Origin: Acidobacteriota bacterium
Lineage (GTDB): Bacteria > Acidobacteriota > UBA6911 > RPQK01 > JAJDTT01
Assembly: GCA_965263035.1 (NCBI GenBank)
Contig: OZ253580.1
Span: 3,008,001 to 3,072,000, forward strand
Direction: 5' to 3'
DNA length: 64,000 nt
Position numbers and translations under genes: made by a program. The notes beneath the pieces are model-generated. The model made no database searches. It was not told the origin of the DNA and saw only the letters and a program-made list of their open reading frames with translations. Positions 11,527 through 63,077 of the stretch are shown here, in pieces. Each line of letters starts with the position of its first letter. Within the stretch, counting starts at the first letter, position 1.

Positions 11527-11586
11527 AGGGGGGACTTCCAGTCCCCCCCTATCCTCCTGGAGCGGCGACAAGAAAATCGCCGCTCC
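11527..11586. repeat. Pair of REP-like palindromes
   Basis: GGGGGAC-TTCCA-GTCCCCC and GGAGCGGCGA-CAAGAAAA-TCGCCGCTCC; same family as 19249, 33861, 58861 and 59604. Confidence 0.65.
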
Positions 11587-34189: not shown

Positions 34190-34262
34190 GCCGGGGTAGC
34201 TCAGTCGGTAGAGCAGGGGACTGAAAATCCCCGTGTCGGCGGTTCGATTCCGTCCCCCGGCA
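34190..34262 (+). tRNA. tRNA-Phe(GAA), CCA not encoded
   Basis: GCCGGGG/CCCCGGC acceptor stem, D-arm, CTGAAAA anticodon loop, GGTTCGATTCC T-arm. Confidence 0.97.
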
Positions 34263-57729: not shown

Positions 57730-58863
57730 ATGAGCAAAACCTACGGGGTCCTTCTGGTGGCCGGAGACTTGACCCACCAGGAGAATTACGGCGCGGCGTT
57801 CGGTCGAGACCCGCGTTGCCGTCTGGTGGCGGTCACCGACGAGCCTGACGTTCCGGAACGCCGGGATCGATTGAATCGGTCGCTGGCCCGGCGCTTTGGC
57901 ATTCCTTTCATCCCTGATCTGTCGGATGCGCTGAAGCGCAGTGACGTCCAAGTCGTGAGCGTCTGCGTCGAGTTCGAACGCCGCGCCCGGGTGGCCGCGC
58001 TCTGTGCCCGAGCGGGCAAGCACGTCTACGTGGACAAGCCTCTGACCGTCTCCAACCGGGAGGCGTCCTCGTTGGTGTCCGAGGTCCGAAAGGCCGGAGT
58101 TCGAAGCCAGATGTTCAGCATGTTCCGAAACCCCTGGGCTCAACGGGCCCGGCGGCTCACCGACAGCGGTGCCCTGGGGGAACTGGTGAGCATGCACAGC
58201 GACCTTCTGTTCTCCAAGGGCCACACCGGAACCGCTGATCTGGACCGTCCCCGCCAGGAGCATTTCCCTCCCCGAAGGTTCACCTATATCGACTCGAAAC
58301 GGGAACTCTTCACCATGGGGGTCTATTCCATCGGGATCATGCGTTGGCTCACAGGCCGTTCGGTGAAACGCGTCTATGCTCGTACCGCCAATTATTTCTT
58401 CCAGGAACACCAGAAGAACGACGTGGAAGATTTCGCGGCCCTGACCATGGAGTTCGAAGGCGGACTGGTGGGGACCTTGAGCGGAGGGAGAATCGGCTGG
58501 CTGAGTCATCTGGCCGGGGGAGTTTCGGGGATCTTCCTGGCCGGGACCCGGGGTTGCCGATTCATCGATGGCGCGCGGCCCCGGTTCGAAGTCGCCTGCG
58601 ACGCGCCTGCCTGGCGGCCCGGGCCGCCGCATCCCGAAGATCCCATGGGGTTCTGGAGAAGCAGCACCCGGGAGGCGGGCGGGGTCCACAAATTCACCTG
58701 GCATTCGGTCCCCGAAGCGACCCAGTCGGACGAGTCCTTCTTCATCGACTGCATCGAGCAGAATCGCGAGAGCGACATGAGCATCGCGGAAGCGGCCGAG
58801 GTGCTGAAGGTGCTTCTGGCCGGCTACGAGTCGGCCGCCACCGGCAAGGTCGTCTCCATTTAG
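57730..58863 (+). CDS. Gfo/Idh/MocA-family oxidoreductase
   Basis: AGKHVYVDKP, GALGEL, VEDFA, AGYESAATG. Confidence 0.9.
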   Translation: MSKTYGVLLVAGDLTHQENYGAAFGRDPRCRLVAVTDEPDVPERRDRLNRSLARRFGIPFIPDLSDALKRSDVQVVSVCVEFERRARVAALCARAGKHVYVDKPLTVSNREASSLVSEVRKAGVRSQMFSMFRNPWAQRARRLTDSGALGELVSMHSDLLFSKGHTGTADLDRPRQEHFPPRRFTYIDSKRELFTMGVYSIGIMRWLTGRSVKRVYARTANYFFQEHQKNDVEDFAALTMEFEGGLVGTLSGGRIGWLSHLAGGVSGIFLAGTRGCRFIDGARPRFEVACDAPAWRPGPPHPEDPMGFWRSSTREAGGVHKFTWHSVPEATQSDESFFIDCIEQNRESDMSIAEAAEVLKVLLAGYESAATGKVVSI

Positions 58864-58874
58864 GAGGGGCGACT

Positions 58875-59516
58875 GTGCGCCAGGCTAACTGGCACAAGAT
58901 AGGCGGTGAAAGTCCGCTGAAACGAAGGACTAACCATCCACGTTTCTCCGCGAGCCGTGCGTGGGCACCCGTGAGGGTGTCGGCGAAGCGTCGGTAGCGG
59001 TGCGTATGGGCAGGCTATTGAGCATCGAAAGCTCCCTGATCGGAAGTGCCGAGGCTGTAGTCGCGGTCGAAGGCAACACCGGCTGGACCGCCAGGGTGAG
59101 GGGCAGCCGGGCTCTGCGGTGTCAAAGAACCCATGCACGTACGTACATCTGGTGTCGGGACCTGGGAGGGCTTACTCTCTCCCCGGCGAAAGCCGGGGCC
59201 TTGTGGGAAAGGGGAAAGCCGTAACCCATGAGGGGAGAGAGGAAGCAATCGGATTCACCCATAGTAGTGATGAAGCGGGCGAACAAGGAGGGGGAACTCT
59301 CTGCGGAGTCGGTGGAGCGAAGGGGTGGAACCAAGGGGAATTCGGCTCACCAAAGTACGGACCGGACTCAGAGCCGGGCTACCGTGACACAGGCGGGGGT
59401 CGGATACGGCGGGCGTCGCGACCTGCCGTCATTACCTGAGGTAGGAGCCGTGTGCCTTAACGGGCACGCACGGATCTGCGCGGGGGGCGCTGGGCAACCG
59501 GCGTCCCTACCGCGAC
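58875..59516 (+). mobile_element. ORF-less group II intron (IIB-like, 642 nt)
   Basis: 5' GTGCG; domain V GAGCCGTGTGCC-TTAAC-GGGCACGCACGGATC; 3' CCCTACCGCGAC; EBS1 AGUCGC (59059-59064) complementary to exon GCGACT (58869-58874). Confidence 0.9.
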
Positions 59517-59948
59517 TTCTTGTCGCCTGCTCTTCTGTACTGCCATGCAATTCCGTGGCCGGAATGTGTAGAGTGGGGACTCCGTCCCCCCTGCCCCCCT
59601 AACCGGCGGCAAGAAAGCCGCCGCTCGTGCGCCCGACATGGGCTGTATCTAAGGGATGAAAGATCCCAAGGGAGGTGATGGGACCAACCCTAGCCGAACC
59701 GCAAGGCGTAGCCGCGAGGTGAAGCTGAAGGAAGCGGAAGGCAAACCCACGACCGCAGGAACACGAACCGGCAGCGAGGCCGGGTGCGGGCGGTGAGCTG
59801 GCGAGCAACAGCGAAACCCGAACCCCATCCAGACGTACCAGGTAGAGCCGGGCGGCCCGGGGGGAAAGATGCAGCACCTTACTCGGGGAGTGGAGTTGAC
59901 CCGCTTTCGTGGACACATCCAAAGTAGGGGAGTAAGGAGGGATCCACG

Positions 59949-60263
59949 ATGGCAAGAAAGCAGAGACGGTATCCGCCGGAGTTCCGGCGGGAGATCGTAG
60001 GGCTGGTGCGCTCGGGGCGATCGCCGGAGGCACTGGCGCGGGAGTTCGAGCCCTCGGCTTCGGCGATCCGGAAGTGGGTCAAGCAGGCCGATCTGGACGA
60101 GGGGCACCGGAGCGACGGGTTGACGAAGTTCGAGCGCCAGGAGTTGCGTCAGGCGAGGCGGGAGATCAAGCGCCTGCGGATGGAGCGGGACATCCTAAAA
60201 AAAGCCGCGGCTTGGTTCGCCCGGGAGAGCGACTCGATCCCAGGAAAGGATTCGAGTTCGTAA
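59949..60263 (+). CDS. IS3 transposase OrfA
   Basis: RRYPPEFR HTH, LRMERDILKKAAAWFA; A7G slippery site 60197-60204. Confidence 0.93.
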   Translation: MARKQRRYPPEFRREIVGLVRSGRSPEALAREFEPSASAIRKWVKQADLDEGHRSDGLTKFERQELRQARREIKRLRMERDILKKAAAWFARESDSIPGKDSSS

Positions 60264-61102
60264 AGGCGCACCGGGCCCAGTTTCCGATTCGGGTGATGTG
60301 CCGCGTGTTGGGTCTCTCCCCCAGTGGGTACTACGCCTGGTTGAAACGTCTGCCCTCGAACCGGGCTCGCCAGGACCAGGCGCTTCGGGAAAAGATCGTG
60401 CAGATCTGGAACGAGAACCGGAGAGTTTACGGTCGGCCTCGTCTGCATGCCGAACTGAGAGCTCGAGGGGAACGGACGAGCCCGAAGCGTGTGGGCCGAT
60501 TGATGCGGGAAGCGGGAATTCAGGGGGTGAGCCGGAGGCACCGGAAGGCCGGGCTCACCCGGAGGGACCGGAAGGCGCGTCCCGCACCGGACCTGGTGAA
60601 CCGGAACTTCGCGGCTGAGGGACCGGATCAGCTCTGGGTGGCGGACCTGACGTATGTTCGCACGCAGGCGGGCTGGTTGTATGTGGCCGTGGTCCTGGAC
60701 GCCTGGAGCCGAATGGTCGTGGGCTGGGCAATGGAGACCCATCTGCGGTCCGAACTGGTCGAGAATGCGCTCGCCATGGCGGTGATACGGCGACAGCCGA
60801 AGCAGGTGATCCACCACTCGGACCAGGGGGCACAATACACCTCGACGGCCTTCGGGAAGAGATGCCGGGAGGCCGGGGTGCGGCCGTCGATGGGCTCGGT
60901 GGGGGACGCTTACGACAACGCGATGTGCGAGAGCTTCTTCGCGACGCTGGAATGCGAGTTGCTGGACCGTCACCAGTTCCGGAATCCGAATCAGGCGAGG
61001 CGGACCGTCTTCGACTTCATTGAGGGATTCTACAACCGGCGCCGCCGACACTCGGCGCTGGGCTACGAGTCGCCGGTCCGCTACGAGCAGCAGGCAGCGT
61101 AG
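60203..61102 (+). CDS. IS3 transposase OrfB (DDE), reached by -1 frameshift
   Basis: WVADLTY, HHSDQGAQY, DNAMCESFF, YNRRRRHSALGY. Confidence 0.93.
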   Translation, partial: SRGLVRPGERLDPRKGFEFVKAHRAQFPIRVMCRVLGLSPSGYYAWLKRLPSNRARQDQALREKIVQIWNENRRVYGRPRLHAELRARGERTSPKRVGRLMREAGIQGVSRRHRKAGLTRRDRKARPAPDLVNRNFAAEGPDQLWVADLTYVRTQAGWLYVAVVLDAWSRMVVGWAMETHLRSELVENALAMAVIRRQPKQVIHHSDQGAQYTSTAFGKRCREAGVRPSMGSVGDAYDNAMCESFFATLECELLDRHQFRNPNQARRTVFDFIEGFYNRRRRHSALGYESPVRYEQQAA

Positions 61103-62030
61103 GACCCACGGCGTCGTCGAAACTCGATCCGGACGACGAGATCCTCGATTCGTGCTCTCGCCGAGTGCAGTGATGACCTGCTGGGGTCGTCTTTCCTGCC
61201 TCCAATGCCGGTCCTGCGGGCCGGGAGGCTCAGAAGGACTGACGCCGCCTCACGAACCGGTTCGTTTTCGCGCTGCTCGACCACGAAGCCAGCACCATCA
61301 CCGTCGCACCAAGCGTCGCGCGCGACACGATTGAAGAGGGCAGGGGGGCGCTGCCCCCCTGAGACCCCCGGATGCAAAGAGATACACACCACTCTTAAAT
61401 CCCTGGAAAGAAAGCGCCGAGGCCCCCTCGTTACGCGGTATCCCATTGTGGAAAATCAGAGATTTCCCACAACGTGAGCCCTTTTGCTGACGCCTCCATC
61501 AGTCCCCCCACAGAAGAAAGAACGCTCTGTCAATGGTCAAAACCCTGACATTTTCTATGGCCATTGACATTCAGCGGGAGGAAGTCTTGCTCCCCAACGA
61601 CAGAAGGAGTATTACAACCTAGACCAACGTAAACCGCACTAATAAACCGTCCACGAAAACGGGACACCTTCAGAGAGCCTTTGAGAAGTCAGCAGAGGTC
61701 ATAGTAGCGAAGAAGCCGGATAATGCCGGTGGAGCGAAGGACCGAAGGAGTCGGACGGGCCCTATGGTGGACTCGTCAGCGGGATCGCAAATACCTCCGA
61801 AAACGGGGCGGGGGGAGGCCCCTCGGACCCGGCACGGAAGGCCCAAGGGTGGAACCCGTCAAGCCGGAAGGGCGGAGATCAAGTCCCAGCGGCGGCGAAA
61901 ACCGGAAAGAAAGGCCCTTTACGAGGCTCGAAAGAGCCTCGAGTGACTCCAACCGCCGGATACTGAAAACGGTACGTCCGGTGGTGTGGGAGGGTGCAGG
62001 GGCGCAATCCCCTGCGCCCGACCCGATCTT

Positions 62031-63077
62031 TCAAAACCACGCGTTCTTGTCGACCACGTTCTTGACCGGCCGGCTGGCGGCGTATCGCCGGACGTTGTCC
62101 ACTACCACCTGAGCGAAACGATCAGGGATCCTGGGGGATCGGGCGGCGCAGTGCGGCGTCAGGATGACGTTCTCCATCCGCCAGAGAGGATGCTCCGGGG
62201 GAAGCGGCTCGATTTCGAACACGTCGAGGCCGGCGCCGGCGATCTCCCCCGCCTCCAGCGCCGCGACCAGATCGTTCAGGTCGACGATGACTCCGCGGCC
62301 GATGTTGATCAGAAAGGCGGTCCGCTTCATCTGCCGGAATTGGGGCCGCCGGAACATCTTGACCGTTTCCGGCGTATGAGGCGCGGAAATCACGACGAAA
62401 TCGCTCTCCACCAGCAGGTCTGCCAGCCGTTCCGGCTTCCAGAGCGACTCCACGCCCGGCGGACATTCCTCTCGCTTGGGGTCGACCGCCAGCACCCGCA
62501 TCCCGAAGGCCAGGCCTCGGCGGGCCACCTCCGATCCGATGCTGCCCAGACCGACCACGCCCAGAGTGGTGTCCGAAAGGTGGATGTGGGCCCAGTCGCT
62601 GGGAGCGACGTCTCGCAGGCTTCGCACGAAGTCGGGGACTTTCCAGCTAGGGTCTCCAACCACCTCCCAAGTTCTTTTCGCCTGGTTGCGGATGTAGTGG
62701 TGCAGGTTCCGGGCGAAGCAGAGGATGAAACCGAAAACGTGTTCGGCGATGACGTCCGAGAAGATCCCTCGCATGTTGGTCACGATCGCGGGGTGATCCA
62801 CCAGGGCGGGGAAGAGATAGTGTTCCATGCTGGCGCTGCCGGCCTGAATCCAGCGCAACCGGGTTTCCGCTGCCAGTAGCTTGGGCGTCATCTTGCCGAA
62901 AAAAGCGTCGGCGTCCACCAGGGCAGCGGCTGCGGCGTCCTCGTCGGGTGCGTTCACCACGGTGCCGCCGTCACCCGCAGCTTCCACGATCGCGGCGAGG
63001 CGGTGAGCATCCACGGCGGGATAGATCACCAGCTTGAAGATTCGCTTCGGGCTTTGGTTTTGGTGTTCCGTTGTCAT
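62031..63077 (-). CDS. D-2-hydroxyacid dehydrogenase
   Basis: GLGSIG, INIGRG, LDVFEIEPLP, LTPHCA. Confidence 0.92.
   Translation of the reverse strand: MTTEHQNQSPKRIFKLVIYPAVDAHRLAAIVEAAGDGGTVVNAPDEDAAAAALVDADAFFGKMTPKLLAAETRLRWIQAGSASMEHYLFPALVDHPAIVTNMRGIFSDVIAEHVFGFILCFARNLHHYIRNQAKRTWEVVGDPSWKVPDFVRSLRDVAPSDWAHIHLSDTTLGVVGLGSIGSEVARRGLAFGMRVLAVDPKREECPPGVESLWKPERLADLLVESDFVVISAPHTPETVKMFRRPQFRQMKRTAFLINIGRGVIVDLNDLVAALEAGEIAGAGLDVFEIEPLPPEHPLWRMENVILTPHCAARSPRIPDRFAQVVVDNVRRYAASRPVKNVVDKNAWF

Follow-up and report, generated by a model that had tools for sequence, protein, structure and literature searches.

Two group II introns inserted in an inverted pair of REP repeats of an Acidobacteriota bacterium

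RmInt1, an endonuclease-less group II intron guided by its exon-binding sites EBS1 and EBS2, homes into a multicopy insertion sequence (IS), ISRm2011-2. Repetitive extragenic palindromic (REP) sequences are short imperfect palindromes that occur outside genes in hundreds of copies; they form inverted doublets, the REPINs, that fold into one long hairpin, and a gene for a REP-associated tyrosine transposase (RAYT) flanks them. Here we analysed two group II introns, called intron 1 and intron 2, that interrupt an inverted pair of REP-type repeats in an Acidobacteriota bacterium (GCA_965263035.1, contig OZ253580.1, 3,008,001 to 3,072,000 of the forward strand). This whole stretch of 64,000 nt is the window, and positions are window coordinates unless marked 'genome'.

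In the consulted part of a review, the targets of bacterial group II introns are specific homing sites, terminators and attC sites, and bacterial introns without an open reading frame (ORF) are described as rare (review PMC4424553). Class C introns insert after intrinsic terminators or attC stem-loops, as that review summarises (Robart 2007; Leon & Roy 2009, via PMC4424553). According to the accessible portion of another paper, ORF-less members of a Thermosynechococcus elongatus intron family are mobilised in trans (Mohr et al. 2010, PMC2882425). REPs have been reported to attract insertions, including insertion sequences, a group II intron of Pseudomonas putida being REP-associated in two of nine copies in the section consulted (Tobes & Pareja 2006, PMC1525189). 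Finally, hydrolytic endonucleolytic ribozymes (HYERs) are ORF-less group IIC introns, and HYER1 measures 637 nt, as related by papers that cite the original description (Liu et al., Science 2024).

Our results showed that both introns lie on the + strand in the intergenic gap between two convergent genes, where intron 1 splits the loop of a REP hairpin and intron 2 comes after the inverted partner REP plus GCTC. Judged from the sequences, both intron families appear to target the same abundant REP by base pairing, on opposite strands. As a combined explanation, it is very probable that both are non-autonomous retroelements guided to one REP doublet. An earlier note on this DNA, made from the letters alone, had described two group II introns in an inverted REP pair, and Rfam matches together with the sequence confirmed that description. 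The elements of the target site are as follows.

58863 to 58874, + strand: 5' half of the sense REP (GGAG-G-GGCGAC-T), from the sequence, the REP consensus and an empty allele
58875 to 59516, + strand: intron 1, 642 nt, ORF-less, IIB-like, RF02005 type, starting GTGCG and ending CGCGAC
59517 to 59626, + strand: REP doublet body, the 110 nt between the introns, from blastn, doublet statistics and fold
59605 to 59626 (with GCTC), + strand: antisense REP hairpin GGCGGC-AAGAAA-GCCGCC; its last 4 nt, GCTC at 59623-59626, are the intron-binding site IBS1 of intron 2
59627 to 62027, + strand: intron 2, starting GTGCG and ending CCCGAT
62028 to 62030: 3' exon CTT of intron 2, directly before the dehydrogenase gene

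Excision of intron 1 from the window leaves GGAGGGGCGACT+TTCTTGTCGCC, and that of intron 2 leaves GGCGGCAAGAAAGCCGCCGCTC+CTT; the sequence and an uninterrupted congener allele agree with the earlier statement that intron removal rebuilds REP hairpins. On the top REP strand, IBS2 of intron 1 is GGAG (58863-58866) and IBS1 is GCGACT (58869-58874). IBS1 of intron 2, GCUC, is on the bottom strand and complementary to the same GGAGC tail, and 11 nt of the repeat separate the two insertion points. The guides that would read these sites are listed next, DI standing for domain I.

59032 to 59035, + strand: EBS2 of intron 1 (CUCC), pairing with REP GGAG, with compensatory changes
59059 to 59064, + strand: EBS1 of intron 1 (AGUCGC; DNA AGTCGC), in the terminal loop of an Rfam-aligned DI hairpin
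59124, + strand: candidate EBS3 of intron 1 (A), complementing the first 3'-exon base
59803 to 59806, + strand: EBS1 of intron 2 (GAGC), in the terminal loop of an Rfam-aligned DI hairpin

We then considered all copies found by blastn against the whole genome (6.198 Mb, a single contig). Intron 1 is present in full seven times (92-100% identity) and once as a 67-nt 5' fragment, always without a reverse transcriptase (RT). All eight sites are GC-rich and hairpin-type; seven are REP-type, of the form GGAGS-GGCGRC-T / loop-GYCGCC (the slash marks the insertion point), and at the eighth the hairpin GGGCACCC / CTTGT-GGGTGCCC is present as a degenerate copy, its intact form being found at the site of a copy in a congener genome (G006). 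Intron 2 has 24 copies with a 5' end, and every one follows a hairpin plus GCTC: 19 of these hairpins are antisense REPs (GGCGRC-AAGAAA-GYCGCC), four are other GC-rich hairpins of the same style and one is unrelated, and the first 3'-exon base is C in 23 copies and T in one. The expectation that other copies sit at related sites, set in the earlier note as a test, was thus borne out for both families.

Guide and target were also found to covary across the genus (congener genomes G001-G008, all eight searched; the sister genus is represented by six genomes). For intron 1, five EBS1/IBS1 and three EBS2/IBS2 combinations occurred, all complementary, among 13 copies from G000, G002, G004, G005 and G006; the EBS1 pairing is 6 bp and the EBS2 pairing 4-5 bp. 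The EBS1 states were distributed as listed.

EBS1 AGUCGC with IBS1 GCGACU: most copies
EBS1 AAUCGC with IBS1 GCGAUU: G005
EBS1 AGUCCC with IBS1 GGGACU: G002, full-length
EBS1 GGGUGC with IBS1 GCACCC or GUGCCC: G006 and the divergent G000 copy
EBS1 GGAUGC with IBS1 GCAUCU: G004

EBS2 changes together with its target, from CUCC/GGAG to CUAC/GUAG (two copies) and CAUGC/GCAUG (one copy). For intron 2, EBS1 GAGC accompanies the exon end GCTC in this genome and in both G004 copies, and EBS1 GAGG accompanies CCTC in all eight copies from G001, G003 and G008. The exact complementarity of each EBS1 to its repeat-derived exon (AGUCGC/GCGACT and GAGC/GCTC), proposed earlier, is thereby upheld by terminal-loop position and covariation alike. 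An EBS3-IBS3 pair characterises IIB introns, and a delta pairing beside EBS1 characterises IIA introns. The candidate EBS3, intron position 250, complements the first 3'-exon base in 13 of 13 copies and in three states (A/T, G/C, U/A), a count confounded by shared descent, through which several neighbouring columns also reach 12 of 13.

The repeat itself is abundant. Its core, GGCGRCTTTCTTGYCGCC, occurs exactly 170 times in the 6.2 Mb, against a chance expectation of about 0.001 by our arithmetic, and the 5' tail GGAGS is conserved (G in 148, G in 161, A in 165 and G in 138 of the 170). A profile search with nhmmer gave 221 matches at E<=0.1, and about 200 REPs carry no intron. The flanks of the introns, whose membership in a dispersed repeat family had been named as a refutation test, therefore belong to a family of about 220 copies. 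The uninvaded relatives listed earlier are all real, in two kinds: 11564-11586 is a true antisense REP with one mismatch to the core, and 19249 and 33861 are variant elements of GGAG plus hairpin. REPs are extragenic at the window locus and in the inspected flanks of intron sites.

By blastn, the 110-nt stretch between the two introns is itself dispersed in the genome as a unit. It begins with the 3' half of the sense REP (59517-59527) and ends with the antisense REP; the spacer between them is about 77 nt long and contains an inner hairpin, GGGGAC/GTCCCC. Among pairs of neighbouring REPs no more than 200 nt apart, 51 were convergent and 72 tandem, and none was divergent. In the empty allele of a congener, the outer sense and antisense REPs pair in a stem of about 22 bp (-52.2 kcal/mol, z -6.6), and 0 of 200 shuffles folded as well. 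We take such a convergent doublet with its long hairpin to be the form called REPIN; the inverted REP-like pair seen in the earlier note was there, and its general, REPIN-like doublet architecture had been overlooked. A full-length RAYT-like Y1_Tnp gene with visible HUH and Y motifs was found at genome 2482816-2483529 on the minus strand (34.9 bits). The first REP directly after its stop codon holds a copy of intron 1; REPs were found on the 3' side only, with none upstream of the gene. A second Y1_Tnp match (genome 3478063-3478461) is truncated. One full-length gene with REPs on one side was judged insufficient to call these REPs RAYT-dependent.

Empty alleles in related genomes, which the earlier note had called for, were found. 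The orthologous gap was recovered from five congener genomes at six loci. At G007:C1, where the flanking gene is 96% identical, three sense REPs are present along with the same spacer and an antisense REP, after which comes CTTTCA, and neither insertion point is interrupted; at G007:C2, a second version, a single REP fills a gap of 30 nt. The G002 and G004 loci have a short gap with other hairpin repeats, and at the G001 and G005 loci the downstream gene was not found beside the upstream gene. In addition, the doublet bodies around intron 2 share 75-94% identity with that of the window, whereas domain I and domains V-VI of intron 2 are 98-100% identical in most copies, so that the introns are younger than the repeats they entered. 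Among intron 1 copies, those at three separate sites show identities of 100, 100 and 99.8%; another two differ from these in the same way and so look identical to each other.

The anatomy of intron 1 points to a reduced element. Its D1D4-6 motif matches RF02005 at 58909-59131 (165.4 bits), and two further parts were recognised.

59207 to 59392, + strand: residual 5' end, in domain IV, of a lost RT frame, by tblastn with congener RTs (62 aa, 69% identity)
59443 to 59516, + strand: domains V/VI, RF00029 (36.9 bits), with an AGC triad and a bulged A 8 nt from the end

With the first 62 codons of the lost frame retained, intron 1 is, on comparison of the sequences, a deletion derivative of an RT-bearing intron of about 1.9 kb known in congeners; full-length relatives with an intact RT (1912-1917 nt) occur in G002 and G004. 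Its cognate RT was absent from this genome in searches by blastn, RF02005 and tblastn with the congener RTs. The use of both EBS1 and EBS2 and the insertion inside a loop ruled out class IIC. A PDB sequence search gave no named class: no solved structure is close to the congener's cognate RT (best match 169.6 bits), and only distant matches with similar scores to IIC, IIB and IIA RTs were obtained.

Intron 2 showed RF02001 at 59708-59875 (81.4 bits), RF01998 at 61670-61742 (43.6 bits) and RF00029 at 61951-62027 (40.4 bits, domains V/VI, with a gathering score of 40), and an IS divides it in the window.

59627 to 59890, + strand: 5' part (domain I), RF02001, in 24 genome copies
59891 to 61672, + strand: IS3-family element, 1782 nt, with TG...CA ends and Pfam HTH_Tnp_1 and rve
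61673 to 62027, + strand: 3' part with the RF01998 motif, a truncated domain IV closed by a short hairpin, and domains V/VI

In domain V, CGC instead of AGC as the triad marks IIC introns, and intron 2 has CGC (CCGCCGG opposite the consensus GAGCCGU in the Rfam alignment). The intact ORF-less form is 630 nt long by blastn against the whole genome, as at genome 2447241-2447870. Of the 24 copies, 19 are uninterrupted and ORF-less (18 of 630 nt and one of 632 nt), two are full-length (1848 nt) with an RVT_1+GIIM frame, and three are interrupted: the window copy and a second copy by the same IS, and a third by a large insert. Relative to the full-length form, the ORF-less one lacks about 1.2 kb of domain IV, with a short hairpin closing the gap, and the RF02001 and RF01998 pair is found in an RT-bearing copy as well. 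Between ORF-less and RT-bearing copies, identity is 99-100% in domains I and V/VI but falls to about 84% across domains II-IV, a pattern that may reflect recombination, or an old split with gene conversion afterwards. The parental RT consists of RVT_1 and GIIM only, without an endonuclease domain, and matches the GsI-IIC RT (6AR1) over its full length at 451.7 bits (E 2.4e-134); the two RT genes are identical and intact. Group IIC introns have an IBS1 of 3-5 nt. A GsI-IIC-like RT, a 4-nt IBS1, a position after a hairpin and the CGC triad therefore place intron 2, by its sequence characters, in group IIC. This agrees with the two intron classes proposed earlier, intron 2 being IIC (RT at 451.7 bits, 4-nt IBS1, after a hairpin) and intron 1 not.

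Non-autonomy was likewise correctly noted, since neither window copy contains an RT. Its RT-bearing parents, which remained to be looked for, were located in this genome for intron 2 (two copies) and in congeners only for intron 1. Two details of the earlier description needed correction. The term ORF-less holds for the backbone of intron 2 and not for its window copy, where an IS with two transposase frames had gone unseen, and the site was right but the end at 62030 was not: it took in three exon bases, and the intron ends at 62027. The IS has orfA at 59949-60263 (HTH) and orfB at 60074-61102 (DDE rve), with an A7G slippery run near 60207. Nine full copies elsewhere in the genome share its ends and have 3-4-bp duplications; one copy of this element spans the start of the circular record (genome 1-215 and 6196519-6198070). 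In the window, GAG stands on either side of the IS, and the intron has lost 11 nt relative to its intact form, which make up one arm of a small hairpin. Contigs from public runs join 59890 to 61673 with exactly the missing 11 letters, ATCTCAAGGGT, between them, because IS-free copies of intron 2 exist elsewhere.

Intron 1 relatives were detected in all eight congeners and in none of the six sister-genus genomes. Intron 2 relatives occurred in five of the eight congeners, with 0-9 matches per genome among those listed, of which at most six per genome were full-length over the 264-nt query; these, too, follow antisense REP-type hairpins. The burst of intron 2 to 24 copies is accordingly, as far as these sequences tell, specific to this genome.

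Both families are also oriented with respect to replication. By GC skew, replication starts near 2.87 Mb and ends near 5.5-5.8 Mb, and co-orientation with the replication fork was observed for 19-20 of the 24 intron 2 copies and for all eight of intron 1. A fork orientation compatible with intron 2 was found for 16 of 20 occupied REPs, compared with 64 of 201 free REPs (Fisher p 3.6e-5). Endonuclease-less intron RTs are primed at replication forks on the lagging-strand template, according to the part of the review consulted (PMC4424553), and the orientation bias fits insertion into the lagging-strand template, which we infer here. Intron-free REPs are themselves strand-biased, with the sense strand on the leading strand in 137 of 201, and single-strand transposition of the repeats would fit this bias.

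Taken together, the gap between the convergent genes would originally have been a REP doublet, comprising a sense REP, a spacer and an antisense REP folding as one long hairpin, into which two non-autonomous group II retroelements would have inserted by RNA-guided reverse splicing. Intron 1 would read the top strand, and it would land one base into the hairpin loop because its EBS2 pairs with GGAG and its EBS1 with GCGACU. Intron 2 would read the bottom strand in the IIC fashion, recognising a stem-loop and then the 4-nt IBS1 GCUC, and so land 4 nt past the stem. Each would depend on an RT acting in trans, of which the obvious source in the case of intron 2 would be its two RT-bearing copies of 1848 nt. 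The IS3 element would later have hit intron 2 of the window, probably inactivating it. An intergenic site flanked by convergent genes is compatible with the "safe landing pad" of the earlier note, which is an interpretation.

Other explanations were weighed against this one. Both families may once have homed to REPs and left ORF-less copies, above all of intron 1, that no longer move, which we regard as unlikely though a serious possibility. The genome has no cognate RT for intron 1, an IS breaks the window copy of intron 2, and bacterial introns without intron-encoded proteins are generally splicing-only elements in the consulted part of the review (PMC4424553). Recent spread is nevertheless indicated by the near-identical intron 1 copies at different sites and by the uninterrupted ORF-less copies of intron 2, which outnumber the RT-bearing ones 19 to 2 and most of which, across their different sites, share 98-100% identity in domain I and V-VI; two identical intact IIC RT genes also speak against loss of mobility. 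That intron 1 is an orphan still moving, even though the only RTs in the genome are 33-38% identical to its cognate enzyme, seems doubtful to us. It would imply cross-class mobilisation by the resident IIC or RF02003-type RT, or a role for the single-strand machinery of REPs and RAYT, in which REP hairpins extruded or nicked on the lagging-strand template might, for instance, supply both target and primer.

A function for the host is less probable still. ORF-less IIC copies could be kept as HYER-like hydrolytic ribozymes that cut DNA or RNA bearing a GCTC target, in a host or defence role, and the 630 nt and IIC class do match HYERs as described in the citing papers (637-nt ORF-less IIC); the expansion to 24 copies, specific to this genome, also counts in favour. 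Against this, a guide of 4 nt would confer very little specificity, and selfish elements typically show bursts in copy number and are hit by IS elements. It has also been largely refuted, and is highly improbable, that the introns were passengers copied along with REP doublets by a RAYT-type transposase or by segmental duplication. Fourteen of the 24 intron 2 copies do stand at the end of the same composite doublet body, and a RAYT-like Y1_Tnp gene exists whose downstream REP holds intron 1. Such copying is contradicted by doublet bodies only 75-94% identical around introns that are mostly 98-100% identical (domain I, V-VI), by unrelated flanks beyond the REP, by five of 24 intron 2 copies that follow other hairpins and have only GCTC in common, and by the EBS/IBS covariation, which shows RNA-guided choice. 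Every intron copy is flanked by REP-like sequence, as it would be if the flanks were intron parts or by-products of insertion; this idea is refuted by the roughly 200 REPs without an intron and by orthologous empty alleles that keep intact REPs, and we give it practically no weight.

Several points weigh against guided homing of two non-autonomous retroelements as the preferred explanation. Domains V/VI of intron 1 score 36.9 bits, below the Rfam gathering score of 40. The congener cognate RTs find, by tblastn, RTs here that are at best 33-38% identical, namely the IIC RT and that of a third, RF02003-type intron family, so no helper for trans-mobilisation of intron 1 was identified. The window copy of intron 2, with the hairpin arm gone and an IS present, may be dead. 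The replication-strand bias derives entirely from GC skew, and gene orientation and selection may confound it. Two introns in one doublet are not improbable when, by our estimate, about one in six antisense REPs is occupied; this pairing was set aside as a signal, chance co-occurrence being expected at the observed occupancy. Splicing and current mobility are likewise inferred. In contigs of three metatranscriptome runs and one other run over 58300-62400, neither exon joint (58874/59517 or 59626/62028) was present; for repeats, such contigs are not decisive on splicing. In two RNA contigs the alignment breaks off at 58874 and 15-16 letters follow, from which we drew no inference.

The genes on either side of the gap and other elements of the genome were also recorded.

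57730 to 58863, + strand: upstream flank, a GFO/IDH/MocA-type oxidoreductase gene (ORF; Pfam PF22725, PF01408)
62031 to 63077, - strand: convergent downstream flank, a 2-hydroxyacid dehydrogenase gene (ORF; Pfam PF02826; stop codon 62031-62033)

The TAG stop of the oxidoreductase gene (58861-58863) shares its last base with the first G of the sense REP. Elsewhere in the window, a tRNA gene lies at 34190-34262 on the + strand (71.5 bits). An RT-bearing RF02003-type group II intron at genome 5841894-5843436 stops about 200 nt short of the beginning of a 23S rRNA gene, on its upstream side, and has three further copies, one interrupted by an insert of about 2.2 kb; another RF02003-type domain I (83.8 bits) is at genome 2513011-2513270. 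A domain V/VI match of 52 bits at genome 340877-340952 has no recognised domain I motif nearby. On the minus strand, a 1253-aa open frame (genome 1808601-1812359) with a weak RVT_1 match of 30.7 bits is unrelated to the introns and could be a stand-alone, defence-type RT fusion.

Both introns belong to known kinds, intron 2 being a HYER-like ORF-less IIC intron and intron 1 an IIB-like deletion derivative. In literature searches on group II introns and REP or REPIN elements, subscription-only papers and supplements aside, no title or abstract opening dealt with REP-directed group II intron homing. What is new is that two unrelated intron lineages make use of a single REP family, each on its own strand, that an EBS1/EBS2-guided intron lands inside a hairpin loop, that the co-evolution of guide and REP variant can be traced across a genus, and that a multicopy ORF-less family, intron 1, exists without a cognate RT in the genome. 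The locus and its relatives thus offer a natural multi-copy system for the use of structured single-stranded DNA at replication forks by endonuclease-less introns, for the reach of an RT in trans on ORF-less relatives, and for the persistence of a helper-less intron family.

In comparison with the described systems, as far as the consulted parts of the sources go, intron 2 resembles class C introns in its position a few nt past a stem-loop, its 4-nt IBS1 and its endonuclease-less, GsI-IIC-like RT; it differs in that the stem-loop is a REP-type repeat on the antisense strand and that no T run follows the stem at the inspected sites. As in the T. elongatus family described in the accessible text, ORF-less derivatives proliferate beside RT-bearing relatives in one genome, although the intron classes are others, ORF-less and RT copies of intron 2 stand at 19 to 2, and intron 1 has no cognate RT. 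Compared with the P. putida association in the section consulted, REP association here is 7 of 8 and 19 of 24, is explained base by base and involves two classes on opposite strands. The backbone of intron 2 is, like HYER1 in the citing papers, a protein-less IIC ribozyme with a short EBS1-loop guide and of similar length (630 against 637 nt); the likeness is one of size and class only, and intron 2 is unlike HYERs a multicopy insert after one defined genomic repeat with RT parents in the same genome, whereby a HYER-like ribozyme gains a defined natural target. Intron 1, finally, is guided by EBS1 and EBS2 to a repeated mobile element as RmInt1 is, but its target is a 25-nt REP hairpin, it inserts in the loop, and it carries no RT.

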